A stretch of DNA of 61,872 nucleotides, taken from positions 1 to 61,872 of the IMG/VR virus record IMGVR_UViG_3300027759_000095; one strand, given 5' to 3'. Below, in pieces: positions 23,501 through 45,328 of the stretch. The translations under genes were made by a program, and so were the position numbers. The stretch is from a virus (lineage: Duplodnaviria; Caudoviricetes). A model generated the notes under the pieces. It was not told where the DNA came from, ran no database searches, and saw only the letters and a list, made by a program, of their open reading frames with translations. Position 1 is the first letter of the stretch. Each line of letters opens with the position of its first letter.

Positions 23501-26500
23501 GATGAACAGCGATGACATCATCCGCCAGAAGGTTGAGCCAGTTACCAAGACAACCGTAACAGAGAAGCAAGTACCCGCTCCAAAGCCAAGTATTGAGCGC
23601 AAGCAAACTGGCCGTGAAACAGAAGTAGCCAAGCTTGAGGTCAAGACTGAGGAAGAGGCTCCAGGCAAAGAACCTAAAGAACCAAAGGAGCAGACTTTTT
23701 ATGATATTGGGGTTGACCAGACGGAAACTCCTGCATTCAAACGTTGGTTTGGCAACAGCAAGATTGTCGATGCTGATGGCAACCCTTTGGTTATGTACAG
23801 GGGAGAAAAAAAAGGCAGTACTTATTTTAAATCAGGAAAACCTGCGCGTCTTAACCAACCAATTTTTGTTACGCCAAGTTTTATTCTGGCAAATAAATTT
23901 GCAGGCGTGAAAAAAACAAACCAAAGTATATTTGGCGGAGGATTTATAACCCCTGTATATGTTAAAGCTCAAAATACATTTGACTATCAAAACAAAAAAC
24001 ACCTCAAGTTAATTTCAAATTATTTGGAATCCATTGATGAATCTGTTTTGGATGATTTGTTGGCAGAAACAAACAATGAAAAAATAAAAGACTATATTCA
24101 CGAGCTTGAGTATTCAGGCCATGACAACTGGAGTGCAATAGAAATGCCGGTAGTGTGGGATTGGCTACAAGCTAACTTTGACTCAGTTTATGTTGGAGAA
24201 GAAGGTGTTAAAAATTTAGCTGTTTTTTCACCAAACCAAATTAAATCCGCCATAGGAAACATTGGCACGTTTGATGAGAGCAACCCTGATATACGTTACA
24301 GCATTGAGGGTAAAAAATTACCTCCGGGGCGTTCTCCTGAGTTGGCGGCTGCGGCAAAAGAAGTTAAAGCTGGAAGAATGTCGGCGGCTGAGTTTGATAA
24401 ATTGGTAAATAAATACAGGCCAATTTATTTATATCAAGTCCCATTAAAGCCAGCTACGCCAGAGCAAATGGTCGAGGCTTTAAGTTCGGACAAAAAAGAA
24501 AAAATTAACCCAACCATTTCAGACGGTACTCGCGTTGGCTTGCGTCTGGATATTCCAGCTTTCAACCGCAAGGGCGTATACGTTGTTTCAATCCACGAGA
24601 AGGGCAACAAAAGTGGCCCCGGCAAAGTGATTGGCTATGACAGTGTTGCTGTAATCAACAATGTAACTTTTGGATTGGGTAGCCAAACTAAAGCTTTGGA
24701 TATTGCTACAGGAGCCTCAAAAGATGCTCTTCAAACAATGGAAGGAGAGTACGTTAAAACCGATCCATCTACGGCTTATGTGAATGCTGTGGAGGCAATG
24801 AATGATCCAGCTTGGACTCAGATTGCTGTAGACCCAACTCGCCATGCTTATTTCTATGACCGAAATACAACTCAACCAGTCATAGCTGCGGAACAAGTTA
24901 TACAAATTGGCAATATGGTTTTGGCTAAAAATGTTACTTATGGAGATAAAGCTGATTATCTTTATAACATAGGGAAAGAAGGCTACGCAGAGCAGGAGCA
25001 AAAGAAACGCTCTGATTCTTTAAAGCGTACTCTTAAGACTCTTAACCGAATGCGCAAAGATGGCCGCATAACAGACGAGCAGTTTGTTGAACGAGCTGAT
25101 GCCGCTATTGCTGCCGATGAAGATCAACGTCTTGCAGAGGAGCCGGGAGAACGTGTACGCGGCGCTGACTTTATCCGCCAAAAGCTATTAGAAGCCAAGC
25201 GCAAGAAGTTTATTTCTGAAGACGCAGCCGATATGGCTGAATGGTTCATTAATCAAAACCCCGCGCTGGTTGATGATTTGGGAATCAGCATTATTGGCAA
25301 AGGCGCTCGCGGTGCGGTTGGGCAATATAACCCATTTAGCCGCATCTTGACCCTTATCAAGGGCCTCGCCTCCGATACGACAACTGTGCATGAGATCTTG
25401 CACCACCTTGAGCGCATGATGCCGACCAAAGTGCAGCAAGCTATTCGTAGGGCTTGGTCATCTCAACTTGCCAAAGCCACCAAGAAGGCCAAGACCCCAG
25501 CCGAGAAGCTGTACTTTGCAGCTCTGAGGGATGCCCACTACGGCAGCAACCGGCATTCGATGTTAATCATTCCAGAAGGTGCTGGTGAGGTTTACTCTAA
25601 AGTGCGAAAGGCGCTTGAGTACGCATCAGAAGATGGCAGTAGCTCTAATTTCGCAGGGACCATGCTCGGGCTGGGGCTGGTTCCAACGAATCTTTACGAG
25701 TACTTCAACCCGTCTGAGTTCTGGGCCGTCAATGGCTCCGACATTGTGCGGGCTCGCTTTGAGGCCGTAAGAGGCGGTGTACTGGCTCGCCTGAAGAACT
25801 GGCTTAAAGAGTTTGCCCAAAAGATTAAGTCGTTGTTTGGCTTGAAGTCTGATGCCTCCATCATTCGTGCGTTAGATAGCCTTGCAAAGGCTGATGGTCA
25901 GTTCGTTACGCAAGAGATGCTGGGAGAGGGAGACTACCTATCAATTGAGCGCCGTAACTTCCAGGGCAATGAGGCTCCACAGCCGGCATTTGAGGCACCA
26001 ATACCATCTGCAATGGATACCTTTGCTTATAACTTCTTGGACAAGCAGCATGACATGAGGAGTGTCATTAATGAGATCCAAAAAGTTAGAGGTGAATTGG
26101 TTAAAGAGCAGATTGACCCTTACCTCAAGAATGAAAGCTTTATTAGCCGTAAAGCTGCGCGTGAAGAAAATTTTGTTGATAACTCAATAATGCCAATTGT
26201 TCAGGAGATGTACAAGAACAAGGTAAGCATTCTTGAAGTAGAAGAGTACATGCATAACCGCCATGCGGAAGAGCGCAATATCCAGGTGGCAAAAATTAAC
26301 CCATCTTTACCTGATGGTGGATCTGGCATTACTACAGCAAATGCACTTAAGTATTTGTCTGAACTTCCAGAAAACAAACTAAAGATCTACAACAAAATTG
26401 CCAAGATGTTTGATGGCGTTGTTGATGAGACTCAACAGATTCTGGTTGAGTCTGGGGCTGAAACTCAGAAGACTATTAATGATTGGAACAACACATACGA

Positions 26501-28751
26501 GTATTACGCGCCGTTGCAGCGCGAGGATTTAGACTTTGTTAATCATGGTGTTGGTAACGGTGGTGGCCTTGGGTCCAGGGGTTCATTCTCCAAGCGCGCT
26601 TTTGGATCAACCAAAAATGTTGCAAACATTTTGCAGAACATTGTGTTGCAGCATAAGCGTGCCATTGACAGGGCTGAGCGTATCCGTGTTGGCAAGTCCT
26701 TAATGGGCCTGGTGCTAACAAATCCAAATCCAAACTTCTGGATACCTGTTAACCCCAATGCAATAAAAAGCATTAAGAAGTTTAAGGAAGAGGTGCAGTC
26801 TCTTGGTATCTCTGCGGACCAAGCAGAGAACATGCTGCAAGAGCCAAAGGCTCCATCTATTGATAAAGAGACTGGGCTTGTTAAGTATGCCGTCAACCCG
26901 GCTATGCGTAGCATGGATAACGTTTTCCCTGTTCGGATTAATGGCCAAGACTGGTTCATCATTTTTAACCCAAGTGATGAGCGCGCAATGCGTATGGTTA
27001 AGTCATTGAGGAACTTGGATGTTGAAAAGCTAGGCATCTTCATGGGCACGGCTGGCATGATTACTCGCTGGATCTCAGCTATTAACACCCAGTACAACCC
27101 AATTTTCGGAGCATTTAACTTTGGCCGTGACGTTGGCACCGGGTTGCTCCAGTTGTCAACAACAGAGCTTGCTGGCCAGCAAAGTAAGGTAATGAAGAGC
27201 GTCATGCCTGCATTGGCTGCAATCTTTAAAGAGCAGCGCGGCTGGAGCGGGTCAAAAAATGTTCTTGATAAAGACGAATTAACACCACAAGAATGGCGTG
27301 ATCTTTACCAGCGTTATAGATTAGCCGGAGGAAAGATTGGCATCAGCGCAAACTTTACTCAACAAAAAACCAGACTTGAAAAGCTGGAAAAGGGCTGGGG
27401 AATTAAAGGTTTGCTTAGCGTTAGAGCAACCACTGATGAAATTAGCCTGATTGACAAAAAACTTGCAGAAATGGATCGCGGCAAAATAATGGCCGGCGCC
27501 CATTACTTGTTTGACTACCTGTCTGACTACAACGAAGCAATGGAAAACGCTGTACGTCTAGCTACATTTAAAGTTGCCGTCCTTGACAACAACATGAGTG
27601 ATGACAAAGGCGTAAGCTTAGCCAAAAATGTCACCGTCAACTTTGATAAAAAGGGCGCAGTGGTTCCCAAACTTCAGGCTTGGTACTCCTTTATCAACCC
27701 CAGCATCCAAGGCGCAGTGGTTGTTAAAAATGTTTTGACTGGGCCAAAGGGCAAGATAATTATTGCTGGAGGCATTGGGCTTGGAGTTATGCAAGCTCTA
27801 TTACTGTTTGCGGCTGGCTTTGATGACGATGACCCGCCAGAGTTTGTTAAGTCAAAGGCGTTTGTTGTTCCAACCGGGGATGGTAAGTACTTTATTGTGT
27901 ACCCTCCCTATCCTCCAGGATTTAGCATGTTGCCAGGAATTGGCCGCATGTTGACAGAGGCGTTCTTGATCAAGTCAAAGGCAATGAAGAGCAACGAATC
28001 TGCCTCTGATAAAATTTTTGACATTCTTCCAATGATGCTTGACTCTGTAAATCCAATGGGTATTGGCGCTACTTGGCAACAGCTGGTGCCAACTCCATTG
28101 GACCCGATTGCAAACGTTATTGTGAATAAAAATGCGTTTGGCCGTCCAATTGCAAAAACGGATCGCCCGGGCGAGGAGACTCCAGGGTATGAAAGATCAA
28201 GAGATAGCGCAAGCTCTATCAGTAAAGGCATTGCGTACTTCCTTAACTGGTCCTCTTCCCCTGCTGGAACAACGTATACCAAGGGAAAAATTAGCCCAAC
28301 CGCAGACCAGTTGGATTATTTTGCCGAGCAATATTTTGGCGGCGTGTTCCGCGAAATGGTTAAGGCTGGGGAGTCTATTGGGGCCAAAGTTAAAGGTGAA
28401 GAGCAGCCAATGTATCGCGTCCCATTGGCTGGCAAGTTCTTTGGTGAGACAAAAACTCCAGCCGCCACCTCTTCTAGGTTCTATAACAACATAGAAATTA
28501 TGAACACACATGAGCATGAAATTAAAAAACGTCAAGAAAATCGCGAACCTACATCTGAGTATTTAAAAGACAATCCGGAGGCTAAGCTTTGGAAGGAGGC
28601 TAATGCCGCCCAAAAAACCATTGGCAACATTAACAAAGAAAAGAAGGCTGCAACTGCACGGGGTGCGTCTAAAGAAACAATTGATGCTATCAATGAAAGA
28701 AAAGTTAGGGCTATGAAAGCGTTTAACGACAAAGTCAGAGCAGCCCAATAA
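17538..28751 (+). CDS. Giant polyvalent ejection protein (C5 DNA MTase-like, L,D-transpeptidase-like, ADP-ribosyltransferase-like, HExxH peptidase, LPD38-like domains)
   Basis: 3737-aa ORF; ILSLFD.SG.W/AAPPCT/MENP; IMHSVW...SFGCINV; FKRWFG.SKIVD..G.PLVMYRG...F.PNQIKSA.GN.GTFD; VHEILHH..SEFWA. Confidence 0.8.
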   Translation: MPIYEYKGQQYDITTEDPAEAKAKILGFIEKQPPAPAPRVPDFAGNAAMSPQEQAYASSQRAGIASLRTPSAVPEMTQYTPSLPEMLMGLLPGDKAKAANEYAARKAAEERGVSTEEIYKGAGGARPMFNPEGRAPILAGTQAGTVIAKELPNIPQQTAVAALQAVRAGDIGAPGQETFLDKAINYMTPETPKGEQDKNYDAFQGLSKSMGFSLTTMVSSIVGAAAGTSVAGFPGGVAGGMGASGTVAYRSSKDDFLSRVRDKLNQESIKLYNKPISKADWENAKKEFDSAASSYGAWEAVPEALSNAIMLKAFTGPARAAAGAGRLEQFMVKNNIAEKIASYATENITETTTGLGQRAAELKAGLSTEELSIADAFRQQFIQTLLMSGGMQVGEKATHAASRFYQDKIEPRINPGSALGKAIMADLNAVEFSQSAINKEAIARLAPQKYQQEKLATEKVAKTARGIAMPPPPEEKLVEPPAAKPPVEPAGIAGLTAAPSESMDTEAMLREALGQAPAGVATLPPVKVEEPKAAKGLADRIGLPQGPARENAANEEIPLDDKILLRDMVVKSVENGLASGKTRQQIIDQLEALTKGGISNSDIARIHDYLTESGVKETPAKVEPTVAETGPFVRKQMEAQAPTTPTPVSIEGALSGIETPKAKQAEAQEQQAPAANVIFSEGQQKLKDALDSNGRIFIDSTDEAGKKTYYAKGVGSTDSKFAVELQLTQEEKRAARIAEGDMELADTQEERNAARQALENALRPAANRATKQQEQQAPATPAKKLTTEQDYYDTFQKTASPEAKAAFDNVEKTLGSVVAAVNNLGYEVTDPKIKLNSEASKLKDQYNALTADRSNLLSGHFALQEKFNNADQNKFNAAIKRANTSANNAQQVIRKAVPRPQEVIEAEQRVTEGEKAISKIKGKPGRSLWTALTGKLGSSDIAELFGKSPQIYQKKLQAKKDTSGKSIADMVSDGDLDDFLPFQMRSNVPGFDGQDAEEYIKDQVRGQNYIPYDAQVEIEQIFGSVEEAEKLINDYLTTEEQNLELQEAADEQRQGEINARSVEPESEIPSTEPDEGEALTKPTPEGLRAKEKYRIEAEAKEAAEAKANKEAGDRAKADKEVGEFTLTGSDRAADVAAARGQKDLLAEEEAPVNEDGVKVVPFEADSETVGKLLSETREEEEPSDIRRNALMHSTEKPAKPKPTEMLTPEEAKAQIDEWKAEAARQGKANKNYNKTILSLFDASGEWARPWQEAGYDVHTFDIQTGEDINDFSAEYLLENGYGDLNIWGILAAPPCTDFASSGAQFWAKKDAKGQTEISNELVMQVIRTVNFLQPKIWAMENPVGRIAKLNNLPPAHLTFDPNYYGDPYTKKTLLWGNFENNLPMAPVEPTEGSKIVKLSGKDKYARSLTPEGFAYAFFMANNAESMTPAERLTRTYYGVDPKAFEGATEADEKAIDDSEFQDKYYDGNLEEAATIARYIINGEQEIQEEPPSEDYQKAVDESNKAIKAFNKIQEAYRAQEIGDDEFLAGRKVYDAAMKKFDTAYAAEQEPAEPAKTPTTALATIDNKAILKDALRIHELNIDLQQISGDDGKKIEDYSAKEIYSEAKYILGLFLESGTMDNDAYIGEHGPEEQKAAKDSVKKLQALIKKYADIEVLGPAEKPAAPQLTNEPYTIEGEFTEIGEEKQHALLSNQTSKLSEDQTKSLEAQYGAKRGSAEFLDSVRKDVIAFITEGAKAVNGKIRAIIRQLANGVLSVAIVFNPQFVSKPYTIAVPQYDIKTSEVIKDLPKEAQSMSDAAKRAYGVIYPALEAQLKANDKLFIVADKRSGNTYLFNPDGSLLLQSKTLFGKAIGDYMHGDNEIEANRITPAGVFDLGLRDAKRSAGEAYTAGEYDFGKVFVLDKSNIGKNGPYSNTIMHSVWTNETDAKQRLAALEKPGAEDSRYSFGCINVNKETFKYLITNHLNQMDGAKIFIVPENGANVMDFINGKAMNSDDIIRQKVEPVTKTTVTEKQVPAPKPSIERKQTGRETEVAKLEVKTEEEAPGKEPKEPKEQTFYDIGVDQTETPAFKRWFGNSKIVDADGNPLVMYRGEKKGSTYFKSGKPARLNQPIFVTPSFILANKFAGVKKTNQSIFGGGFITPVYVKAQNTFDYQNKKHLKLISNYLESIDESVLDDLLAETNNEKIKDYIHELEYSGHDNWSAIEMPVVWDWLQANFDSVYVGEEGVKNLAVFSPNQIKSAIGNIGTFDESNPDIRYSIEGKKLPPGRSPELAAAAKEVKAGRMSAAEFDKLVNKYRPIYLYQVPLKPATPEQMVEALSSDKKEKINPTISDGTRVGLRLDIPAFNRKGVYVVSIHEKGNKSGPGKVIGYDSVAVINNVTFGLGSQTKALDIATGASKDALQTMEGEYVKTDPSTAYVNAVEAMNDPAWTQIAVDPTRHAYFYDRNTTQPVIAAEQVIQIGNMVLAKNVTYGDKADYLYNIGKEGYAEQEQKKRSDSLKRTLKTLNRMRKDGRITDEQFVERADAAIAADEDQRLAEEPGERVRGADFIRQKLLEAKRKKFISEDAADMAEWFINQNPALVDDLGISIIGKGARGAVGQYNPFSRILTLIKGLASDTTTVHEILHHLERMMPTKVQQAIRRAWSSQLAKATKKAKTPAEKLYFAALRDAHYGSNRHSMLIIPEGAGEVYSKVRKALEYASEDGSSSNFAGTMLGLGLVPTNLYEYFNPSEFWAVNGSDIVRARFEAVRGGVLARLKNWLKEFAQKIKSLFGLKSDASIIRALDSLAKADGQFVTQEMLGEGDYLSIERRNFQGNEAPQPAFEAPIPSAMDTFAYNFLDKQHDMRSVINEIQKVRGELVKEQIDPYLKNESFISRKAAREENFVDNSIMPIVQEMYKNKVSILEVEEYMHNRHAEERNIQVAKINPSLPDGGSGITTANALKYLSELPENKLKIYNKIAKMFDGVVDETQQILVESGAETQKTINDWNNTYEYYAPLQREDLDFVNHGVGNGGGLGSRGSFSKRAFGSTKNVANILQNIVLQHKRAIDRAERIRVGKSLMGLVLTNPNPNFWIPVNPNAIKSIKKFKEEVQSLGISADQAENMLQEPKAPSIDKETGLVKYAVNPAMRSMDNVFPVRINGQDWFIIFNPSDERAMRMVKSLRNLDVEKLGIFMGTAGMITRWISAINTQYNPIFGAFNFGRDVGTGLLQLSTTELAGQQSKVMKSVMPALAAIFKEQRGWSGSKNVLDKDELTPQEWRDLYQRYRLAGGKIGISANFTQQKTRLEKLEKGWGIKGLLSVRATTDEISLIDKKLAEMDRGKIMAGAHYLFDYLSDYNEAMENAVRLATFKVAVLDNNMSDDKGVSLAKNVTVNFDKKGAVVPKLQAWYSFINPSIQGAVVVKNVLTGPKGKIIIAGGIGLGVMQALLLFAAGFDDDDPPEFVKSKAFVVPTGDGKYFIVYPPYPPGFSMLPGIGRMLTEAFLIKSKAMKSNESASDKIFDILPMMLDSVNPMGIGATWQQLVPTPLDPIANVIVNKNAFGRPIAKTDRPGEETPGYERSRDSASSISKGIAYFLNWSSSPAGTTYTKGKISPTADQLDYFAEQYFGGVFREMVKAGESIGAKVKGEEQPMYRVPLAGKFFGETKTPAATSSRFYNNIEIMNTHEHEIKKRQENREPTSEYLKDNPEAKLWKEANAAQKTIGNINKEKKAATARGASKETIDAINERKVRAMKAFNDKVRAAQ
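19100..19121. repeat. Dispersed palindrome site 1 (AACTTTACCACCTGTTAAAGTT)
   Basis: Inside giant ORF; 19099-19122 is the exact reverse complement of 47850-47873. Confidence 0.85.
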
Positions 28752-29024: not shown

Positions 29025-29819
29025 TTAATCGCCACAAAAGCAAGAAATTGCTTCTTCATTAGGGTCAAACATATCGTATTGTTTATTGGTGTAAGTCAAC
29101 ATATCTGCATAACTTGGGTGCGCTTGATTAAAACTTGCACCTATTTTTTTTTCCATGTTTACCCACCATATTGCGCGTTCTGGTTTGTCTTGAATTAAAC
29201 CTAATAAGTGATTTGTTTTTTTTAAAAAACACAAATCGCAATTACTTAACAATGAGTTTCCATTAACAGTTATGGTGTCTAAGTCAAACGATTGATCACT
29301 CCAAAAAGACAAAACGTCTTTCACCGTTACTCGCGCCGTGGCCAAAGGAGTCTCTTTGATGTCTATATTGCCTTTCATCTTGGCAACCCTCTGAGGCTCG
29401 TCAGCGCGTATGCCAACAAATGTAACAATGTCCTCATATCCTAATGACTTAAGATGTTTTTTCATTGGGTTTATCTTAAGCTCAGAAGTGCAAAACCTAG
29501 CAAAGGTGTTGGGTAAATAATTCTTTTTTTCTATCAAGGCTTGGAAGGGTTCACCATTCCTACTGGCCGTTGCGTAATCAACAACAGCATACCCATTTGC
29601 CCTGTACTCCAGCCATGCAATAGGCACACCCCACTGCTCAGAGCAATCCTGCACGAACCTTAAAGTTACCTCGTCCTCTTTGCCCGTGTTAGCAAAGCAA
29701 ACGATAGCCTCTGTTGGTAGTCCGCCATTGCTTTGCAATACGCGCCAAAGCATATAGGCAGACGTTCTGCCGCCACTAAAAGAAATACAAGTTGGCTCGG
29801 TTATTAAAAATGGGTCCAT
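29025..29819 (-). CDS. Phosphoadenosine phosphosulfate reductase-family protein
   Basis: PP-loop ISFSGGRTS, FANTGKE, RFCT.ELK, GIRADE, NCDLCFLK, C-terminal CFC. Confidence 0.85.
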   Translation of the reverse strand: MDPFLITEPTCISFSGGRTSAYMLWRVLQSNGGLPTEAIVCFANTGKEDEVTLRFVQDCSEQWGVPIAWLEYRANGYAVVDYATASRNGEPFQALIEKKNYLPNTFARFCTSELKINPMKKHLKSLGYEDIVTFVGIRADEPQRVAKMKGNIDIKETPLATARVTVKDVLSFWSDQSFDLDTITVNGNSLLSNCDLCFLKKTNHLLGLIQDKPERAIWWVNMEKKIGASFNQAHPSYADMLTYTNKQYDMFDPNEEAISCFCGD

Positions 29820-31568: not shown

Positions 31569-31821
31569 CCCATGGGTCCTTTTCTTGAGTTACAGCAGGC
31601 TTAACGTAGGTATTCACCTTCATTGAAACCATTCGATTGTTGTTCTTGTCGCGCTTTACCCAGCCGTCCAGCTTGATCGTTACCGTATCTTCACCCTTGG
31701 CTGATTCAATCATCTGCATGAGGTAGGCTTTGTCAAACTTCATGTTGCCGTTCATGTCCGGCGCTTTCTCGTTTCGCTTGTTTAGGGAGGTAAACAGCGC
31801 TCCTGTGTTGGAGTATTCCAT
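31561..31821 (-). CDS. Putative small single-stranded DNA-binding protein
   Basis: NTGALF..K...APDMNG...W.K...SM pattern with acidic tail DPWDD, next to an ERF gene. Confidence 0.5.
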   Translation of the reverse strand: MEYSNTGALFTSLNKRNEKAPDMNGNMKFDKAYLMQMIESAKGEDTVTIKLDGWVKRDKNNNRMVSMKVNTYVKPAVTQEKDPWDD

Positions 31822-32513
31822 TAAAATTTTCCTTTCGCTTCTTTAAACAAATCCATGATTTCAGCATGGATCTCGGGTGACGTTGCTTTCGCGTGGTCGT
31901 AATGCTGGCGGTTGACCTTGTACATTTCCTTAACCTTGTCTTCGCTGTCTGCGTAAGTCAGCTTTAACTTGGTTGCATCAATTAGCAGCTGGTTCCACTG
32001 ATCAGAGTCTTCGGCATTAATCACAATCGTCCATGCCTGGTTAGGCTCTACCCACTCAGGCGGTAGCTTGTCGCCTTTAACGTACTTCTTCGGCTCCGCT
32101 TTTGGCTCCGCCTTTGGCTCGGCTTTTACCTTAGGCTCCTCTGCTCTGGCAGAAGAATCAATGGCATCATGCTCCACAATCTCCATAGCCGTCATCCATA
32201 GGTAGCGGCGTTGGTAGGTTTCAACCGCGCCTAGGTTTTGGATGGGGTGTGCGCCCTTTAGTTCAGCTCCAGCCATAGGGCTAGAGATCACAATCACCGT
32301 GCCGTCGTCGGTGTCGGTGATGGATAGGGTTGCGTAGGTTTGCTCGTAAGAGACAACGCCACACAAGCCCAGCTCGTAAAAGATAAGTTGAATATCAGGC
32401 AAGAAGTCGCCCAGTTCAAAATACTTGTAGCCGGCAAACTTGTTCAGTCCCGTCTTTTGTAACTTCGTGTTGTACAGGCGTATCCGCGCCTGCATTAATT
32501 TCTTATGTACCAT
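31821..32513 (-). CDS. erf: ERF-family single-strand annealing recombinase
   Basis: K.G.NKFAGYKYFEL.D...QNLGAVETYQRRYL...D.ID; AEPK x3 linker. Confidence 0.85.
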   Translation of the reverse strand: MVHKKLMQARIRLYNTKLQKTGLNKFAGYKYFELGDFLPDIQLIFYELGLCGVVSYEQTYATLSITDTDDGTVIVISSPMAGAELKGAHPIQNLGAVETYQRRYLWMTAMEIVEHDAIDSSARAEEPKVKAEPKAEPKAEPKKYVKGDKLPPEWVEPNQAWTIVINAEDSDQWNQLLIDATKLKLTYADSEDKVKEMYKVNRQHYDHAKATSPEIHAEIMDLFKEAKGKF

Positions 32514-32692: not shown

Positions 32693-33571
32693 TTACTCCT
32701 TGGTTTTTAAATAATCCTGGTACTGATTGCAGTACCTACTAACAGAGCAAAAGTTAGCGCAGCGCGTCCGTTCTCCCAGCCGCACTTCTATCTCGTACTC
32801 TTTCCCGTACTCCGCCACCTTGGCTAGAGCTTCTTCATTGGTGTCACAGACATTGCGTGCCTTGACTCCACCAATCTTTTTAACCGCGTAGGTTGTTTGC
32901 TTTTCCCACATCTCATCAGAGGTGCAGTGGGGTAACTCGTCACCCGTCTCAAGATCAAACAGGGCGTTAGAGTGTGTCTCAATGCGCTCCTCAATGAATG
33001 CTTGCTGGCGCTCGTATGGCCACAACTGGATAGGGATAACCTTCACAGGCGCGTCAGGGTAGCCTTGCTTGATGGAGGCATCCCTGCGGCTCCAGTCGCG
33101 GATGATGGCCACGATCTCCAACTTGCTCACGTCGACGTTCTTAACCTTTCGGACAAGCCAAGCGTAGATGTTTAGCTGTAGCTCCCAGTCGATCTTCTCG
33201 TTCATCACCGACCATGCGCCTACAGTCTTGTAGTCATTGACAGTGATGGTGCCGTCCTGATTGACAATCTGTAGGTCAATAGCGCCGGTAATGGACCAGC
33301 CGTCAACGCTGGTATGTAGGCGTTCCTCGACTAGGTGATGGTCATCCTTGCCGTGTTCCAGTACGCCGTGAATGGCCGTTCCAAAGATGGACCAGACCAT
33401 CTCGCTAACGTCCTGCTCTATCTGATCGGCGTGCAGCTTGCGCAGCTGGACAATCCTGGGGGAAGAGATCAACTCGGTGGCCGAGATGTTGGACTTTCCC
33501 TTCGAGTAAGACGGGCGCTTTAAGACGTTCACAAACGTCTGCGGTAGGTTGTACCTGTTAGTGATGATCAT
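32693..33571 (-). CDS. PD-(D/E)XK (Cas4/RecB-like) exonuclease
   Basis: GTAIH..LE, ITGAIDL...DYKT, QLNIY, C-terminal RC..FC.V..C cluster. Confidence 0.85.
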   Translation of the reverse strand: MIITNRYNLPQTFVNVLKRPSYSKGKSNISATELISSPRIVQLRKLHADQIEQDVSEMVWSIFGTAIHGVLEHGKDDHHLVEERLHTSVDGWSITGAIDLQIVNQDGTITVNDYKTVGAWSVMNEKIDWELQLNIYAWLVRKVKNVDVSKLEIVAIIRDWSRRDASIKQGYPDAPVKVIPIQLWPYERQQAFIEERIETHSNALFDLETGDELPHCTSDEMWEKQTTYAVKKIGGVKARNVCDTNEEALAKVAEYGKEYEIEVRLGERTRCANFCSVSRYCNQYQDYLKTKE

Positions 33572-34097
33572 TGTGTTTGCTTTCTAGGTAAAAAATAAAA
33601 TCTATTAAAGACCAGCCGCTTACCATTATTTTCATTTTTATTTCTTTAGTCTTCCATGATGGCCTGCCCTCTACTACAAAAGTAGACAGGCTCCCATCCT
33701 TAACATGGCGCTCCAATTCTGAACGTGTCATTGACAACATGTTCTTTACATGGTCCAGTGTGTAGACAGCCGTGTATTGAACATATCTATGAATGCACTG
33801 CTGTATTTGCTGCTCCTTCTTCTCTTCTTTTTTTTCGTCCTTTATCTCTTGCTCAATTTCGCGTGCCGTCTTTTTGTTCGCTATGTTGAACTTTGGGTCT
33901 TCTGTTTTTATAGCCTTCTTCTCAGCAGCGATTGCTTCCTCTCTGGTAGGAAAGTGTTCAATGGTTACCCTGGAAACCTTGTTGAACCACTGTGAATGAT
34001 CCTTATGCTGGCTTAGCCTTTTGAACGTACTTAGGGAAATGCCAACGTAAAGAAGCGCGTTCTCATTGTCGAAATGTCTATAAAGCTCAGTGTTCAT
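33558..34097 (-). CDS. GIY-YIG nuclease-domain protein
   Basis: LYRHFD...LLYVGIS....R..QH...E..AI..E.P.FN; possible C-terminal HTH. Confidence 0.8.
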   Translation of the reverse strand: MNTELYRHFDNENALLYVGISLSTFKRLSQHKDHSQWFNKVSRVTIEHFPTREEAIAAEKKAIKTEDPKFNIANKKTAREIEQEIKDEKKEEKKEQQIQQCIHRYVQYTAVYTLDHVKNMLSMTRSELERHVKDGSLSTFVVEGRPSWKTKEIKMKIMVSGWSLIDFIFYLESKHNDHH

Positions 34098-34125: not shown

Positions 34126-34155
34126 ATTGTACCCATAGTATATCATGTCTTGCAA
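34126..34155 (-). promoter_or_regulatory. Leftward sigma70-like promoter
   Basis: TTGCAA-N18-TACAAT on the minus strand upstream of 34097. Confidence 0.6.
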
Positions 34156-34174
34156 CCCCTTTCTAAAAATATTT

Positions 34175-34489
34175 ATGGCGGTCACAACTACGCAGCGCAG
34201 CCTCAAGTACATGAGGGACAACGGCTTCTATGCCGAGGTAGTAGAGCGGTACAACTCTTTTACCAAGCGCAAGAATGACTTCGCCGGCTTCATTGACATC
34301 CTGTGCCTGGGCCAGGGCGCGGTAATCGGCGTGCAGACCACCAGCTGGGGCCACACATCAGACCGGCTAAAGAAGATCCTAGAGCATGAGAACCTAGATA
34401 TCGTGAGAGATGCTGGCATCAAGATAGAGGTCCACGGCTGGCAGAAAAAGGGCAACCGTTGGCAAGTAAAAATTATTCATGTAGAATAG
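34175..34489 (+). CDS. PD-(D/E)XK nuclease / Holliday junction resolvase-like protein
   Basis: MRDNGF.AEVVE...D.AGFIDILCL...GVQTT...EVHGW.K. Confidence 0.6.
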   Translation: MAVTTTQRSLKYMRDNGFYAEVVERYNSFTKRKNDFAGFIDILCLGQGAVIGVQTTSWGHTSDRLKKILEHENLDIVRDAGIKIEVHGWQKKGNRWQVKIIHVE

Positions 34490-34522
34490 CGTTGCTTTCT
34501 CCTTGGTCCTAAAAAGACCCTT

Positions 34523-34549
34523 ACCCCCTGGGCGACTGGGGGGTTTTTT
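34523..34549 (+). terminator. Rho-independent terminator
   Basis: ACCCCCTGG-GCGA-CTGGGGGGT stem-loop followed by a T run. Confidence 0.75.
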
Positions 34550-34571
34550 AACTTTACCAGCTGTTAAAGTT
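34550..34571. repeat. Dispersed palindrome site 2 (AACTTTACCAGCTGTTAAAGTT)
   Basis: Intergenic, 25 nt upstream of the -35 of the ncRNA promoter. Confidence 0.85.
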
Positions 34572-34595
34572 GGAGAAAATATTTTTTAGTACTTA

Positions 34596-34624
34596 TTGCC
34601 GAAAAGCAAAAAGTGCTGTACAGT
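34596..34624 (+). promoter_or_regulatory. sigma70-like promoter for the ncRNA region
   Basis: TTGCCG-N17-TACAGT. Confidence 0.6.
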
Positions 34625-34630
34625 TAGAAC

Positions 34631-34724
34631 TGTTGTAGTCGTTCACAACATGTTTAAAGCCGTTACTCATGCATTGGCCTCCATCTCGGAGGGAACGACC
34701 CAGTGCAGTAGTAACGGCTTTTTT
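34631..34724 (+). ncRNA. c4/CI-like antisense RNA with upstream target hairpin
   Basis: Hairpin TGTTGT-AGTCGTTC-ACAACA; stem AAAGCCGTTACT/AGTAACGGCTTT enclosing TGCATTGG/CCAGTGCA and CCTCC/GGAGG; unpaired GAACGAC (34693-99) is complementary to the upstream loop GTCGTTC. Confidence 0.65.
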
Positions 34725-34729
34725 CGTTT

Positions 34730-35047
34730 ACGACTGCCACCGGACTCCATCCGTTAGCAAGTGGTTGTATCGCCAGCGTGGAAGTAAAGACAAAAAACTC
34801 GGTGTGACCCGCACCTCCGAAGTAGCGAGAGCCAAAAGGAATAAACAAGGTTGTCAGTAATGACACATACCCTAGACCGCTGGGAGATGATCGACAAGCC
34901 GGTGAGAACTGGCTTTATCGGGATTCCAGGGGAGGGCGGCTTGGCCGGCCGATAGACTGCATAAAAACCAGTCAAAGCACCTTGATAAAGAGTCGTTAGC
35001 CATCCTAGTTTCCCTGCAGGGGGAGGGAGGGTCAACGGGTAAGAGGG
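34730..35047 (+). ncRNA. Candidate large structured non-coding RNA with G-rich tail
   Basis: Nested helices ACGACT/AGTCGT, CCAGCG/CGCTGG and TATCGGG/CTTGATA; two GNRA-capped hairpins; no credible ORF. Confidence 0.5.
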
Positions 35048-35069
35048 CTTAGCACTGACAACACAACAG

Positions 35070-35099
35070 TTGACATGCTAGGAATTCATGTGGTATGAT
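35070..35099 (+). promoter_or_regulatory. Strong sigma70 promoter
   Basis: TTGACA-N18-TATGAT with extended -10 TG. Confidence 0.75.
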
Positions 35100-35105
35100 A
35101 TTTAC

Positions 35106-35181
35106 GAGGGGAAAGCGGATGCTATGGTTTAAAACAATTGAGTCTTGAACCCATGCGGCCCATAGTGCAGCGAGTACCTTC
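35106..35181 (+). ncRNA. Candidate structured 5' leader RNA
   Basis: GAGGG/CCTTC closing stem, GAA/AGTA loop-E-like internal loop, CTATGG/CCATAG stem; starts at the predicted TSS. Confidence 0.4.
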
Positions 35182-35205
35182 ACCTTTTAACTTAGGAGAA
35201 AGCAA

Positions 35206-35685
35206 ATGAGTTGGAATATTTTTAAGAGAGTAGCTCTACTAGAGCAGCAGGTAAAAGACCTAACTGACTTTAACAGTGATCACAGCCGATGGATTGCTCG
35301 GCTGGAGGAGAAAGCACAAAAGCTGGAAAACGCAAACCAGGTTTTAGTGAATTCAAATCAAGCCTTGATTCGCAAGCAGGAGAATCTTGCCGAAAGAGTG
35401 AAAGATATTGAGCATGAGATTTATACGCAATCACGCCAGCCCAGCAGCGATGATGGAGGACGGATTGTCCGGCTAGAAGAAAAAGTAAAGCAATTAGAGA
35501 ACAAGCTTTTTATTCAAGCGGTGGAACACAATGCATTCTCTGAGGTAGACAAGGCAAGGGAGGCTAAGCGCCAGTACCAGCGCGAGTGGTACGCACAAAA
35601 CAAAATCAAAAAAGCTGCGCAAGAGAAGAAGAATGCATACGCAAGAGCCTACTATGCCCGCAAGAAAGGACAAACCAATGCGTAA
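35206..35685 (+). CDS. Coiled-coil hypothetical protein
   Basis: RBS AGGAG; internal RI.RLEEK repeat; basic YQREWY/YARAYY tail. Confidence 0.7.
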   Translation: MSWNIFKRVALLEQQVKDLTDFNSDHSRWIARLEEKAQKLENANQVLVNSNQALIRKQENLAERVKDIEHEIYTQSRQPSSDDGGRIVRLEEKVKQLENKLFIQAVEHNAFSEVDKAREAKRQYQREWYAQNKIKKAAQEKKNAYARAYYARKKGQTNA

Positions 35686-41418: not shown

Positions 41419-42200
41419 CGTTTGAAGACTTTGCAAGGCTACATGGCCTCATGCTCGACCATGTAATTGAGGGCCGGTGGGTAAGAGTGCCAACAGAGGA
41501 CCACCCCCGAAAGAAGAATGGCGCGTACATCTTTGATGGGAAAAGTGGCCTCATACAGAACCATGCGGTCCACGAATCCCCAATCAGGTATATGTCCAGC
41601 GAACCATTCGTGCCGGACCCAAACGCTGCGGCCAAGCGCCAAAAGCAGCGCGAGGACAGGGCAAGGCAACAGGCCGAGGCGGCCAAGAAAGCGGCATTCA
41701 TCTTTAACAATGTTAAAGTTGAGCAGCACCCGTACCTAGTTCGCAAAGGGTTTACCGAGCCATCCAAGGTATGGAAGGGGCTTTTAACTGTGCCGATGCG
41801 GGTGGCCGGTAACTTAGTTGGCCTCCAGCTAATACATATAGACGGAACAAAGCGGTTTTTGTCAGGGCAGCAGACCAAAGGGGCGAGCCTAGTCATAGAC
41901 AACAAGGGGCCGGACGTTCTAGTTGAGGGACTGGCCACGGGCTTGTCGGTCCGCCGAGCGTTAAAACTGGCGCGGCTGCGGTACAGAATCCACGTTTGCT
42001 TTTCGGCTGGGAATATGCTGGAAATAGCCAAGAGCCTGGACAACCCTATTGTGGTGGCCGACAACGACCTAATGGGCGTAGGGACTGCTAAAAAAATCGC
42101 CTCTCGCTATTGGTTAGGAGAGGCGGGGGAAGACTTCAACGATTTCGAGCAGAGGGTAGGCGCCCAGGCGGCTGCCGAGTCCCTCCGTCCGTTCTTTTAG
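41415..42200 (+). CDS. Toprim-domain DNA primase-like protein
   Basis: HPYLVRKG, VEGLATGLS, CFSAGN, VADND, EDFND. Confidence 0.85.
   Translation: MTFEDFARLHGLMLDHVIEGRWVRVPTEDHPRKKNGAYIFDGKSGLIQNHAVHESPIRYMSSEPFVPDPNAAAKRQKQREDRARQQAEAAKKAAFIFNNVKVEQHPYLVRKGFTEPSKVWKGLLTVPMRVAGNLVGLQLIHIDGTKRFLSGQQTKGASLVIDNKGPDVLVEGLATGLSVRRALKLARLRYRIHVCFSAGNMLEIAKSLDNPIVVADNDLMGVGTAKKIASRYWLGEAGEDFNDFEQRVGAQAAAESLRPFF
41700..41720. repeat. Dispersed palindrome site 3 (ATCTTTAACAATGTTAAAGTT, 1-bp spacer)
   Basis: Inside primase ORF. Confidence 0.7.
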
Positions 42201-42382
42201 ATTCCCTCCAGTTCAGAGTCTGCGGCAAAGGTGGCGGCAATAGCGCCTTCGTCCTCTGCCCCATTTTTGTATATGCGTACATCAATGCCGTTATCGGTGC
42301 TAAAGATACGCACCGAAAAGCCTCTGACGGCAAGCCATACCGCGCCGTCTACCAGTTCGTAATCACCATCTTCAAGTTTCAT
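42197..42382 (-). CDS. Hypothetical early protein
   Basis: MKLEDGDYEL..GAVW..V.GFSVRI; coupled. Confidence 0.65.
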   Translation of the reverse strand: MKLEDGDYELVDGAVWLAVRGFSVRIFSTDNGIDVRIYKNGAEDEGAIAATFAADSELEGI

Positions 42383-42573
42383 GCTGCTGCTCCTTGTGGG
42401 TAGTTGTCGGTAAATTGGAATGTCCATTGTTTGAGCAATGCCTCGTCTGTGTACGCATAGAACCCGCCTTTTGCAAAGAAGCGAACAGAATCTTCAAAAT
42501 CCCCATTTATGTCAAACAGGTACTCCAGTTCGTGCTTTGTCAATTCGTAGACCATCTCTTCTCTAGTTTTCAT
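42379..42573 (-). CDS. Hypothetical early protein
   Basis: Coupled ORF. Confidence 0.65.
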   Translation of the reverse strand: MKTREEMVYELTKHELEYLFDINGDFEDSVRFFAKGGFYAYTDEALLKQWTFQFTDNYPQGAAA

Positions 42574-42743
42574 TTCAATGTTCCAATCATGTAAGGGGTT
42601 TGCCCATTTATGTCCGGCGTTATCAGGAATGGCAGATCAAAGTCTGACATTTCTTCCATAAATTGCCTAGCGGCGGTGCGTGATGTAAAGGCGCGGATAA
42701 ACCGGCCGGCAAGATAGACCTTGTATAACCAGCGTTTTCTCAT
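42570..42743 (-). CDS. Hypothetical early protein
   Basis: MRKRWLYKVYL...; RBS GGAGG. Confidence 0.6.
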   Translation of the reverse strand: MRKRWLYKVYLAGRFIRAFTSRTAARQFMEEMSDFDLPFLITPDINGQTPYMIGTLK

Positions 42744-42910
42744 GGCATTACCTCCAGCTTTAGCGCCTGGGTGCCGGTGTCGTAGCCCAGATGGTAGGAC
42801 CATATCTCCAGCGGCGTCATAAAGTCGTTTTGCTCGTGCTGGTCGCTGCGTGCGTGGAAGTATCCAACCGCGAATGCTTGCATTTGGTTATAGGTGAAAG
42901 TGACTTTCAT
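42740..42910 (-). CDS. Hypothetical early protein, 56 aa (not in ORF track)
   Basis: MKVTFTYNQMQAFAVGYF...; ATGA-coupled on both sides. Confidence 0.6.
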   Translation of the reverse strand: MKVTFTYNQMQAFAVGYFHARSDQHEQNDFMTPLEIWSYHLGYDTGTQALKLEVMP

Positions 42911-43041
42911 TTTTTTTCTTTCATAACGTAAGCGGGATTGCCTGTCTCGCGCATATAGAACATGGCCTCATCGTTGGCCTCTTTTTGCGTTTTGAATTCC
43001 CCTAGTAGGGTGTGGTTGTGGTTGTAGATTCGGTAAATCAT
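42907..43041 (-). CDS. Hypothetical early protein, 44 aa (not in ORF track)
   Basis: MIYRIYNHNHTLLGEFKT...TGNPAYV; coupled. Confidence 0.6.
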   Translation of the reverse strand: MIYRIYNHNHTLLGEFKTQKEANDEAMFYMRETGNPAYVMKEKK

Positions 43042-43244
43042 GCTCGCACCACCTCAAACCATGCGTCCAGCACCCCAGCGTCCTGCAACGCCACTTCAAT
43101 GTTAAAGACAAAATCGCTCAGCATCTTGGGCATATCCATGCCGTTAGCTTGGTATGACTCTCGCAAGTCGTTTACCAAGTACAGGGCGGTTTGCGAATCG
43201 CCATTAAAAGACAATGCCTTTTCACTTGCTTGTATAAGTATCAT
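43038..43244 (-). CDS. Hypothetical early protein
   Basis: RBS AGGAG. Confidence 0.65.
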   Translation of the reverse strand: MILIQASEKALSFNGDSQTALYLVNDLRESYQANGMDMPKMLSDFVFNIEVALQDAGVLDAWFEVVRA

Positions 43245-43253
43245 TTTTTTCTC

Positions 43254-43613
43254 CTACCAGTTAGCGTATTTTTTGAATGCGCGGGTGTACTCTGCGCGGC
43301 TTTTAAATGGGCCTTTTAGTAGGCAATGGTGCAGGAATTTCCTGTCCATAAAGTACCCCTGGGCTAATTCATTCCCTGAGTTTCCTAATTGGGCGTAGGA
43401 CTCATCGGCGTAATGGTCTTTTAAAACCATCTTCACTTTATCCCATGCGTCCATTAGATCGACACCATTGACGCGCCCATACCCATCGTATGAGCCCTCA
43501 ATTTTCCTGCCACTAGGTAGCAGGGCCACAACCATGTTTAATCGTGGCAAATCTAATGCCTCGACCACAATCGGCATATGCGTTTTGGCGCAAGTTTTAG
43601 AAAAATAGCCCAT
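43254..43613 (-). CDS. Hypothetical early protein
   Basis: MGYFSKTC...G.YDGYGRV...QGYF motif. Confidence 0.7.
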   Translation of the reverse strand: MGYFSKTCAKTHMPIVVEALDLPRLNMVVALLPSGRKIEGSYDGYGRVNGVDLMDAWDKVKMVLKDHYADESYAQLGNSGNELAQGYFMDRKFLHHCLLKGPFKSRAEYTRAFKKYANW

Positions 43614-43615
43614 TT

Positions 43616-43828
43616 TTATCTCCTTGTGAATGGATCGTGCGCGGATAGATAATTTTCGAATTGCTCCAGGACGCTGGCCTTGTCGCCTTTAAATCCGAAT
43701 TCCTGCTTTATGATTGCATAGCAAGTTCGCCCTTTGCTTACCTTTAGCCCGCGCAGCTCCAGCCGGAGCCCGGAGCGCAGCGTCAATAGCCGGTAGAGCG
43801 ATATTTGGTTTGGTTCTGTGATTACCAT
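43616..43828 (-). CDS. Hypothetical early protein
   Basis: LRLE.RGLK.S.GRT.YAIIK.EFG.KG motif. Confidence 0.7.
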   Translation of the reverse strand: MVITEPNQISLYRLLTLRSGLRLELRGLKVSKGRTCYAIIKQEFGFKGDKASVLEQFENYLSAHDPFTRR

Positions 43829-44001
43829 TCGTCCCCCTCAATCGGCTCGTCAACGTCCGATTCGTTGTAATGGGTGAGTATTTCGGGCCGGTAAAGGGCC
43901 ATAACGGCGTCGTAGCAGCGGTCGCAGACCCTGGCCAGGGGAATGCCCCGGCCGTCATGCTCCCACCAACTATCGGCCAATGCGTGATCGCATCGTTTCA
44001 T
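43822..44001 (-). CDS. Small Zn-finger-like protein, 59 aa (not in ORF track)
   Basis: C...SWWEHDGRGIPLARVCDRC...YRPEIL; RBS AGGAG. Confidence 0.7.
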   Translation of the reverse strand: MKRCDHALADSWWEHDGRGIPLARVCDRCYDAVMALYRPEILTHYNESDVDEPIEGDEW

Positions 44002-44023
44002 AACTATAACTCCTGTTAATGTT
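44002..44023. repeat. Dispersed palindrome site 4, degenerate (AACTATAACTCCTGTTAATGTT)
   Basis: Overlaps the RBS of 43822-44001. Confidence 0.55.
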
Positions 44024-44066
44024 GGGCAAAATGGCCCCCAAAGCCCCGCGCGCGAGGCTTTAAGTG

Positions 44067-44252
44067 TTATTTGTCTAGCAATTGGCGGGCGGTGTATACG
44101 GCGTCTACAAGCTCTTCAGCCATAGCGTCATCGGGTAGGTGCTGGGTGTTCATTCCAGCCCAATATGCCAAGCGGTCTAGCGCCTCGCGTAACTCTTCCA
44201 TTGCGATCAGCTGGAAGCGCAGTTCGTTAAGTAACTCGGTGGATGTTTTCAT
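44067..44252 (-). CDS. Hypothetical early protein
   Basis: Helical 61-aa ORF in the operon. Confidence 0.6.
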   Translation of the reverse strand: MKTSTELLNELRFQLIAMEELREALDRLAYWAGMNTQHLPDDAMAEELVDAVYTARQLLDK

Positions 44253-44254
44253 TT

Positions 44255-44446
44255 TTAGCCTTTTGCGTGAAGTTGGAATTCTTTCCGGCCTCGCTGGATA
44301 AGTGCGCGGGCCTGGGTGCGGTCTTCGGGTTGTTCGGCGGCGATTAGGGCTTGCAGCTCTTTCGCTCTTTTGATTCGATTGGCGGGCACCGATAGGCGCT
44401 CATATTTATAGCCCGCGTCGATGTAGTGCGCCTCGGGCTGGTTCAT
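44255..44446 (-). CDS. Hypothetical early protein (paralogue of 44443-44634)
   Basis: EA.Y..AG.K...E..EDR..A.AL.Q.G..E. Confidence 0.65.
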   Translation of the reverse strand: MNQPEAHYIDAGYKYERLSVPANRIKRAKELQALIAAEQPEDRTQARALIQRGRKEFQLHAKG

Positions 44447-44634: not shown

Positions 44635-44636
44635 GG

Positions 44637-45326: not shown

Positions 45327-45328
45327 GG

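Follow-up and report, generated by a model that had tools for sequence, protein, structure and literature searches.

The IMG/VR record IMGVR_UViG_3300027759_000095, a complete virus record of 61,872 bp that forms the whole stretch of DNA analyzed here (the window), contains a 716-nucleotide (nt) gap between the stop codon of a 114-amino-acid (aa) open reading frame (ORF), at 34489, and an ATG at 35206. Read rightward, this locus is composed of a terminator, a promoter-like site (promoter P1), a small RNA module, a large RNA, a second promoter (promoter P2), a leader hairpin, and the first early gene. We found that the plus strand of 34730-35055 almost certainly encodes a genuine phage-borne structured noncoding RNA (ncRNA) of ~320 nt, whose family is absent from Rfam 15. 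An initial annotation, made from the sequence alone, had placed an ncRNA at 34730-34997 and had proposed it as a new class of phage ncRNA. The class proposal is upheld by an RNA that covaries, lies on the plus strand, is noncoding, and has no catalog match. As to extent, there is indeed an RNA at this position, but an end at 34997 is too short, as conservation continues to ~35055, ~55 nt further 3′. The parts of the large RNA, all on the plus strand, are as follows.

34730..35055, plus strand: large structured RNA, supported by alignments A1 and A2 with their pair counts; covariance model R1 scores 343 bits on the window
34730-35/34991-96, plus strand: helix P0, basal, read by eye
34741-44/34750-53, plus strand: helix P1, covariation
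34747-49/34779-81, plus strand: pseudoknot, 3/3 pairs covary
34762-65/34772-75, plus strand: helix P2, covarying
34801-06/34810-15, plus strand: helix P3, covariation, near-invariant hairpin
34816-18/34838-40, plus strand: helix P4
34823-26/34831-34, plus strand: helix P4a, GNRA loop
34846-51/34979-84, plus strand: helix P5, long-range, 5/6 pairs change on both sides
34853-56/34861-64, plus strand: helix P6, 4/4 pairs change on both sides
34870-72/34930-32, plus strand: helix P7o, invariant throughout A1
34880-83/34926-29, plus strand: helix P7
34896-903/34908-15, plus strand: helix P8, 7/8 pairs change on both sides
34937-40/34948-51, plus strand: helix P9
34955-59/34969-73, plus strand: helix P10, 5/5 pairs change on both sides
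about 35010-14/35019-23, plus strand: helix P11, read by eye
35019..35047, plus strand: G-rich 3′ tail, runs of at least three G spaced by 1-5 variable bases

A basal helix closes the multibranched core, in which four arms radiate from a five-way junction closed by the long-range helix P5. The core also includes a small 5′ pseudoknot domain, the near-invariant hairpin P3, and a short helix enclosing an AGUAG-flanked GNRA hairpin; on its 3′ side follow a variable C-rich/G-rich hairpin and then a tail of conserved G-triplets.

Twenty-five viral loci were retrieved by way of the 114-aa neighbor, and their comparison with blastn and MAFFT revealed conservation over ~34741-35055 with obvious compensatory changes. 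Three pattern scans of IMG/VR with an nhmmer filter yielded at least 51 unique main-group and at least 10 distant-group sequences, and a 13-helix structure was derived from an independent scan of column pairs and from RNAalifold. In alignment A1 (33 distinct rows), 94.3% of cells were paired and 27 of 57 pairs changed on both sides, compared with 3-6 double-change pairs and 29-45% pairing in six controls with the 3′ partners slid by 1-3 columns; none of 500 shuffles reached the A1 covariation score. Alignment A2, which comprises 61 unique sequences (59 distinct) aligned via R1 and, being fitted to that model, leans towards it, had 95.0% of cells paired and 40 of 53 pairs changing on both sides, compared with 10-14 in slid controls. 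Covariation among homologs, on which the initial annotation had staked its RNA, is thus present far above the level of the slid controls.

The pairs themselves also indicate the strand. In A2, helix P3 has U-A in 43 sequences and C-G in 16, and its first pair is G-C in 51 and C-G in 8. A U-G pair in P3 is found in 59 of 59 sequences and a U-G pair in P10 in 25; because such pairs would be A-C on the opposite strand, we assign the RNA to the plus strand, and the earlier argument for RNA over DNA structure from plus-strand G-U pairs is borne out. Folding energy was less telling. Over 34730-34997, z was -1.95 and 8 of 200 dinucleotide shuffles folded as well, and over 34730-35055, z was -1.47 with 7 of 100 shuffles as good; so slight an advantage, taken alone, comes close to the outcome that the initial annotation had said would speak against an RNA. 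Judged from these sequences, single-sequence folding energy is weak evidence, and the case for the RNA rests on covariation. We rejected a minus-strand RNA because the minus-strand fold (z of -0.61) was no better than shuffles and the G-U pairs need the plus strand. A long-range pairing between the P3 stem and the G-rich tail, suggested by RNAalifold, was also rejected, since the local P3 hairpin covaries after the addition of differently found sequences. A shorter contact between the P3 loop and the tail, ACCC with GGGU, is possible; it never varies.

Junction and loop nucleotides are conserved across groups sharing only ~40-60% of other positions. Within the family, there are three versions of the 5′ domain, and 16 of 51 main-group sequences have a plain hairpin instead of the middle domain (P7-P8).

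All eight complementary stretches named in the initial annotation are present in the sequence, and six of its eight helices stand. CGGA/TCCG and GGTGTG/CGCACC are helices P1 and P3, each supported by compensatory change, while the TGTCA..TGACA hairpin, the AAGCCGGT..ACTGGCTT hairpin, and GACTG/CAGTC are P6, P8, and P10, with the double changes listed above. The basal ACGACT/AGTCGT helix, which was not formally counted, is a plausible one: the main group shows no variation in the ACG/CGT core, and by eye the distant group has a different complementary pair at both basal-helix places. Two pairings had to be abandoned, namely, CCAGCG/CGCTGG, whose 5′ arm is divided between the covarying P2 (34772-75) and the pseudoknot arm (34779-81), and TATCGGG/CTTGATA, in which CTTG is the 3′ strand of the covarying long-range P5. 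The GNRA loops that had been pointed out are real and occur in P8, P6, and P4a.

The statement that ~700 nt of this gene-dense genome lack a credible ORF also proved correct, as 34490-35205 has no conserved ORF. The longest ORFs in the gap encode 93 aa (34754-35035, minus strand, TTG start), 67 aa, 63 aa, and 53 aa, and a search of the gap ORFs against Pfam returned zero families. The equivalent of the minus-strand ORF is open in 8 of 61 homologs (broken in 53), and that of the plus-strand ORF is open in 2 (broken in 59). The three codon phases have similar shares of variable columns (65/108, 73/107, and 69/108), and three-base periodicity is absent. With the ORFs broken in most homologs and variation even across codon phases, we rejected a protein-coding reading; the codon-like conservation that the initial annotation had named as a sign of a protein was not seen in the 61 homologs.

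Comparison with existing catalogs returned no relative of the large RNA. Rfam 15 consists of 4227 models, including GOLLD, ROOL, OLE, raiA, HEARO, RNase P, transfer-messenger RNA (tmRNA), 6S, introns, riboswitches, and ribozymes, and at gathering thresholds it produced 0 matches across the whole window. At E values up to 10, six weak matches were found in 34450-35250, none of them inside 34731-35126; the best, to freshwater-2 (21 bits versus a gathering score of 49.9), overlaps the leader hairpin. On 14 related loci, Rfam identified three tRNAs only, and on five further related loci, it identified nothing at E values up to 0.1. ARAGORN detected no tRNA or tmRNA gene in the window and none at the RNA in 29 related loci. 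As the initial annotation had supposed, then, the element is not a tRNA, tmRNA, RNase P, or intron, given that ARAGORN and Rfam 15 match nothing at the RNA. We specifically rejected a group I or group II intron because no gene is interrupted, the RNA lies between a terminator and a promoter, and no Rfam intron model matches; the five-way junction closed by P5 is also, we presume, unlike the cores of either intron type. A guide RNA, retron, or DRT ncRNA was rejected because the 24 ORFs scanned include no TnpB/IscB, IS110 recombinase, or reverse transcriptase; the neighbors of the RNA are the 114-aa protein without a family, a GIY-YIG endonuclease, and a 159-aa coiled-coil protein. With blastn, neither the 716-nt gap nor two distant members of the family matched any of 50,697 phage records. 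Full-text searches of the literature, which is not sequence-searchable and whose supplementary motif lists might hold one, turned up no description of the RNA.

Of the 99 loci supplied by the first and second viral scans and a species-genome scan, R1 matched 73, all of them viral and none among the 10 genome loci; it also matched 14 of the 97 loci listed from the third viral scan. Counted by contig name, the family occurs in at least 86 IMG/VR contigs besides the window. A metagenome scan gave at least 119 loci, with R1 matching 46 of the first 100 and nhmmer matching 55 of 119; the remaining loci are mostly chance matches in G+C-rich coding DNA. The IMG/VR contigs probably derive in many cases from these metagenome contigs, which makes the sets dependent on each other. 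Most sequencing runs that contain portions of the stretch carry freshwater or aquatic metagenome labels. A scan of 185,579 prokaryote species genomes with one pattern gave 10 candidate loci and 0 family members, which does not prove absence from bacteria, and R1 matched none of the four nearest isolates by terminase (DSL-LC04, 023Pt_psg01, HTVC027P, and MinM2), an empty answer that shows little.

The large RNA is only one part of a composite locus, the other features of which are the following.

34145-34489, plus strand: 114-aa gene on the left side of the RNA island, stop codon at 34489
34523..34550, plus strand: intrinsic terminator of the 114-aa gene, found by scan (9-bp stem, six G-C pairs, T-run) and conserved in relatives
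34596..34624, plus strand: promoter-like site P1, two hexamers 17 nt apart, predicted start near 34631
34632..34724, plus strand: small RNA module of ~95 nt, with a short hairpin (34632-36/34645-49), a long hairpin (34656-34721), and a T-run (34719-24)
35070..35099, plus strand: promoter P2, sigma-70-type, for the rightward early genes; 11/12 hexamer matches and a TG extension, conserved in the main group
35115..35171, plus strand: leader hairpin of the 159-aa gene, outside the RNA; flanks conserved, middle variable yet complementary in relatives
35206..35685, plus strand: first early gene, 159 aa, coiled-coil-like, without a family; present in only two other viral contigs

The hexamers of promoter P1 match at 8 of 12 positions in the window, under the scanner cut-off, and better hexamers occur at the same position in relatives. 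In the small module, the loop of the short hairpin (34638-44) is exactly complementary to a bulge on the 3′ side of the long hairpin (34693-99), which gives a pseudoknot. The fold of this module is far better than that of shuffles (z of -6.62, with 0 of 200 as good), and in 18 sequences 12 pairs were 97.7% paired and the 7 loop-bulge pairs were 93-100% paired, 5 of the 7 changing on both sides. The module has no match in Rfam. Its long-hairpin stem and six-T run are present and conserved; the terminator scanner omitted them, the large structured insert standing as the "loop."

By pattern search, the hairpin end of the small module lies upstream of 39 of 61 family members, and the 22 misses include lineages with a T-run hairpin of different sequence, as judged by eye. 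Among 37 listed distances from the small module to the large RNA, 29 are 2-18 nt, 6 are 87-113 nt, and 2 are 207 nt, with another folded module in between in the 87-113-nt cases. A folded module of ~110 nt, in which outer and inner stems close two variable hairpins, was seen singly or in tandem in at least three copies (L020:4400-4900 and L024:4330-4930, and, in L033, L051, and L067, in the interval from the small module to the large RNA); it is blank in Rfam. The small module also occurs without the large RNA, in L011, L014, and L020, and it may be either a constant "driver" of the RNA island or a regulated terminator.

The large RNA starts 6-11 nt past the T-run with no promoter between the two, and promoter P2 begins 15-20 nt after its end. 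In the distant group, the locus keeps this order and follows a Cro-like gene, and ERF and SSB genes lie on the left side. No iteron-like or tandem repeats and no AT-rich repeat cluster were found beside the large RNA. Parts of the locus are covered by contigs assembled from four RNA libraries, each belonging to a different study: library X18 has a single 204-nt contig on 34736-34937 with uncovered flanks, X16 has an 831-nt contig over 34700-35188, and X15 and X17 cover chiefly the small RNA module. These are assembled contigs in which DNA carry-over is possible and whose ends fall at conservation borders, perhaps as assembly-graph breaks; they therefore mark no 5′ or 3′ end of the RNA, gaps in their coverage carry no meaning, and they are no more than a hint of expression.

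The tail of the large RNA is distinguished by G runs that stay constant, with variable bases as spacers. In 60 of 61 members, the final 75 nt contain four or more runs of at least three G; the remaining member, L178, has G-doublets only. A second copy of the seven-base G-rich word is found at 34929-34936 and varies in step with the tail; by eye, most members have GGGAGGG, L075, L077, and the distant group have GGGUGGG, and L178 has GGCAGGC. When a G-quadruplex term was included in ViennaRNA, the minimum-free-energy fold contained a three-layer quadruplex in 44 of 61 full RNAs and in 53 of 61 isolated tails. The tail thus has the sequence features of an RNA G-quadruplex, namely, four or more runs of at least three G, short loops, and conserved G with variable loops. 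Two observations speak against a plain quadruplex: L178 has only G-doublets, and the first G run of the tail also pairs with the upstream C-rich strand, one pair being U-A, A-U, or G-U by lineage (by eye). To judge from these sequences, duplex and quadruplex may compete. Should the tail truly adopt the quadruplex, a bacterial virus would provide an example of a natural and conserved RNA G-quadruplex.

The large RNA is present in 15 of the 25 loci that share the 114-aa neighbor, and the others show how readily it is lost or replaced. In L011, L014, and L020, the small module is kept and a different ~370-nt noncoding stretch and an HNH gene stand in the place of the RNA. In L025, L027, and L028, only the 5′ pseudoknot domain is found (19-20 bits with R1), fused to unrelated bodies of 250-330 nt. 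L024, L026, and L030 had no R1 match, and L029 ends too early to be scored. Rfam recognized none of the replacement modules at E values up to 0.1. The record behind L011 (G001) is complete, with direct terminal repeats and a length of 61,031 bp; its helicase is 84% identical to that of the window and its left-hand neighbor 97% identical, and R1 found no copy of the large RNA in the whole record. The genes around the RNA change as well. L075 and L046 have tRNA genes immediately upstream of the locus, lineages without the 159-aa gene have other first genes downstream, and some phages with the large RNA have an early region of quite another kind (Cro-like gene, ERF, and SSB).

Three observations on these replacements should be recorded. 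The ~370-nt replacement (L011:4720-5110 and L020:5060-5450) contains a T-arm-like word, followed by the HNH ORF, and is blank in ARAGORN and Rfam. The partial RNAs lie at L025:4655-5010, L027:5000-5370, and L028:4820-5090, the L028 body ending in a G-rich stretch. In the metagenome contigs L278, L342, and L349, a shorter RNA-like element of ~250 nt lies between two co-oriented genes. All that this last element has in common with the large RNA is the P3 hairpin, the AGUAG junction, and the distal ACGGG word, and it may represent a second architecture built on the same core.

The locus sits at the divergence of two operons. Rightward from 35206 run genes for a ParB-like protein, helicase, primase, terminase, portal, and capsid, followed by structural genes at the record start, in an operon of ~55 kb that extends round to ~28750. 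Leftward, from ~34100 to 29000, run the GIY-YIG endonuclease, PD-(D/E)XK nuclease, ERF recombinase, and other genes.

33558..34097, minus strand: GIY-YIG endonuclease gene, first gene of the leftward recombination operon (Pfam match, E value of 1.6e-07)
32693-33571, minus strand: PD-(D/E)XK nuclease, leftward recombination operon (Pfam match, E value of 6.4e-09)
31821-32513, minus strand: ERF, leftward recombination operon (Pfam match, E value of 3.2e-08)

The large terminase is nearest to those of the Pelagibacter phages HTVC027P and HTVC023P, the lake phage DSL-LC04, and the phage 023Pt_psg01, at 54-57% amino-acid identity. Neither Pfam nor PHROG assigns the 114-aa protein to a family; by eye alone, it may contain a nuclease motif of the PD-(D/E)XK type. 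An ORF of 3737 aa at 17538-28751 contains LPD38, polyvalent-protein ADP-ribosyltransferase, and C-5 methylase domains and looks like a giant polyvalent protein, probably injected with the phage DNA, rather than an RNA polymerase; transcription should therefore depend on the host enzyme.

For the large RNA, sequence comparison establishes structure, conservation, strand, genomic setting, and dispensability, whereas its transcription, the read-through, its action in trans, and its target are inferred. We favor an accessory, early-made, trans-acting RNA that binds a host or defense factor, with a probability of roughly 40%. Host RNA polymerase would start at promoter P1 early in infection, and part of the transcripts would pass the T-run to yield the large RNA, which would then act in trans as an accessory factor. 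As a guess, its conserved core and repeated G-rich words might bind and hold a host or defense protein or mimic the substrate of one. The large RNA would be one of several interchangeable RNA cargoes, tRNAs included, in a fast-evolving RNA island. We prefer this account because the RNA is swapped, lost, or replaced in near-identical phages, because it shares its island with tRNA genes and other RNA modules, because no downstream gene is constant, and because the early genes have their own strong promoter after the RNA. As analogies only, phage tRNAs are reported to overcome retrons and other defense systems (PMC11555353), and work on tRNA-Tyr cleavage reports that a GIY-YIG homing endonuclease amplifies anti-defense loci (PMC13096335).

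Several points weigh against a trans-acting accessory RNA. The anti-defense idea rests on analogy, and both the partner protein and the target are, as far as sequence can tell, hypothetical. There is no promoter between the T-run and the large RNA, so that expression depends on read-through or processing. One RNA-library contig crosses the promoter, with the carry-over caveat given above. The RNA is always co-oriented with and directly upstream of early genes, with no terminator after it, which fits a cis-acting leader equally well, and the element of L278, L342, and L349, lying between two co-oriented genes, looks cis-acting. The hypervariability of the island may reflect only the general mosaicism of phage early regions.

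These points lead to the main rival, a cis-acting leader, which we regard as possible but distinctly less probable. The transcript from promoter P1 would continue into the early genes, and the RNA would modify the polymerase (processive antitermination) or direct processing or translation. Besides the missing terminator and the orientation shared with all downstream genes, the RNA stands at the head of the early operon in every lineage examined; the terminator-like T-run just before it implies that read-through must be regulated, and the mini-family between co-oriented genes has the same P3/AGUAG core. Most early transcripts would nevertheless need no RNA, given the strong promoter P2 (11/12) between RNA and genes in the main group; put-type RNAs precede the terminators that they override, whereas here the terminator-like hairpin comes first; and close relatives with the same downstream replication genes have no RNA or a different module. 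Lacking a promoter and terminator of its own, the RNA must have ends made by cleavage, an argument for a ribozyme or self-processing RNA in which the near-invariant core (P3, AGUAG, and the distal GGG word) would be a catalytic center, for example, for self-excision from a promoter P1 read-through transcript. The conservation of junction and loop nucleotides across otherwise ~40-60% similar groups, the GNRA loops and pseudoknots typical of large ribozymes, and the recurrence of the core in a second architecture agree with this idea, which we still consider unlikely: no Rfam ribozyme family matches, no recognizable conserved cleavage-site signature was found, and host RNases could make the ends.

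The initial annotation had favored a replication primer or origin-activating RNA, whose G-rich tail might form a persistent RNA-DNA hybrid or hybrid quadruplex to be processed into a primer. It had reasoned from a genome with helicase and primase but no recognizable initiator or polymerase, and this was confirmed among the 24 ORFs scanned, a subset of all ORFs; the fixed G runs with variable loops in the tail and the intergenic site at the divergent strand switch point the same way. We nonetheless abandoned the primer as very improbable. G001 has no copy of the large RNA despite having the same helicase, which argues against an essential primer; the RNA is found with unrelated early and replication modules; and an ornate, covarying core of 260 nt far exceeds what a primer needs. 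Iterons and AT-rich repeat clusters are absent from its vicinity, and the GC skew, proposed as a check, only tracks gene orientation. Presence, absence, and replacement at one site in near-identical backgrounds, with a GIY-YIG gene 630 nt to the left and an HNH gene with the alternative module in L011 and L020, could also be read as homing of a mobile or selfish RNA element (intron-like or an endonuclease-associated cassette) without a phage function. This too has very little probability, since there is no interrupted gene and so no exons, no group I or II match, and no adjacent reverse transcriptase or transposase, and since the endonuclease genes are not consistently linked to the RNA and none is near it in the distant group. 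That the locus is no RNA at all and instead a DNA-level site (origin, packaging, or recombination) or a small protein gene is barely credible: a 93-aa minus-strand ORF exists and G-rich DNA could fold on itself, but the compensatory changes keep G-U pairs that work only on the plus strand, and the ORFs are broken in 53 and 59 of 61 homologs with no three-base periodicity.

The large RNA can be set beside several known systems. In a recent report, ROOL and GOLLD are described as large, multi-pseudoknotted, phage-borne RNAs that often lie beside tRNA genes and whose function and partner are unknown; examples measure 659 nt and >800 nt, and ROOL, GOLLD, and OLE form unexpected RNA-only assemblies (10.1101/2024.12.08.627333). 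The large RNA resembles ROOL and GOLLD in being large, pseudoknotted, and phage-borne, with tRNA genes upstream in L075 and L046. It differs in that their Rfam models are blank here even at E values up to 10, in being half their size or less (~320 nt), and in heading an early operon behind a small RNA module and ending in a G-triplet tail. An orphan ornate phage RNA near tRNA genes has precedents, and the family is new to every catalog tested; what is new about it is its modular architecture, its small driver module with a pseudoknot, its G-rich words that vary together, and a possible conserved quadruplex.

Other comparisons are more distant. The put RNAs of HK022 are cis-acting antiterminators of ~70 nt with two stem-loops, located directly downstream of a promoter and upstream of terminators. 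Like them, the large RNA is a phage-encoded folded RNA at the start of an early operon that would need no phage protein; unlike them, it is ~320 nt long, lies after a terminator-like hairpin and before another promoter, and shows no similarity. In ColE1 RNA II and mitochondrial CSB II, a G-rich stretch of the transcript forms an RNA-DNA hybrid or hybrid quadruplex that is processed into a primer. The G-rich stretch of the large RNA could likewise stabilize such a hybrid or quadruplex within a folded transcript, but the large RNA is dispensable in a complete close relative and has no adjacent origin features. The phi29 pRNA is a structured RNA that is made from an early phage promoter and works as RNA; the RNA described here has no similarity to it, belongs to a different phage type, and is absent from relatives with the same packaging genes. 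Finally, the c4 RNA of P1/P7 and the CI RNA of P4 are short structured immunity RNAs from early or immunity regions with a loop complementary to a site in the later transcript. Here the likeness concerns the small module only: its loop, too, can pair with a sequence that comes later in the transcript, but that sequence lies inside the same hairpin, and no Rfam C4 match was obtained.

A broader proposal, which we put forward tentatively and consider rather unlikely, is that these elements form a new superfamily of modular phage RNAs that share a pseudoknotted core and act as protein-free effectors, the island being an RNA-based counterdefense arsenal. The core would consist of the P3 hairpin, with its ACCC loop word pairing to a distal GGGU, and the AGUAG junction, and it would be wired to interchangeable 5′ domains and bodies in at least two architectures, the ~320-nt family and the ~250-nt L278 type. 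The large form would end in four-base G-rich repeats (GGGA, GGGU, or GGCA by lineage) that change in step at two sites. An effector with a conserved RNA G-quadruplex or another repeat-recognition surface would capture a host machine at an early stage of infection, be it polymerase, ribosome, or an immune nuclease.

Only a few large RNAs with intricate folds and no assigned function have been described, and this family, which comes from abundant freshwater phages, adds one with 61 unique sequences and 40 covarying pairs. The RNA also explains a 716-nt "empty" stretch that gene callers left blank in at least 86 viral contigs, and the locus reveals, at the head of an early operon and thus at a typical site of counterdefense, a hypervariable island made up of several RNA modules that are missing from the catalogs.

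Elsewhere in the window, two further features were observed. The leftward operon contains a phosphoadenosine-phosphosulfate reductase-like gene at 29025-29819 on the minus strand (PHROG 424, E value of 9e-50). At 42200-46800, the G+C content rises to 0.54-0.55 (versus ~0.48) and long ORFs are scarce on both strands; a 27-nt direct repeat lies inside this high-G+C stretch, at 44309 and 44488.

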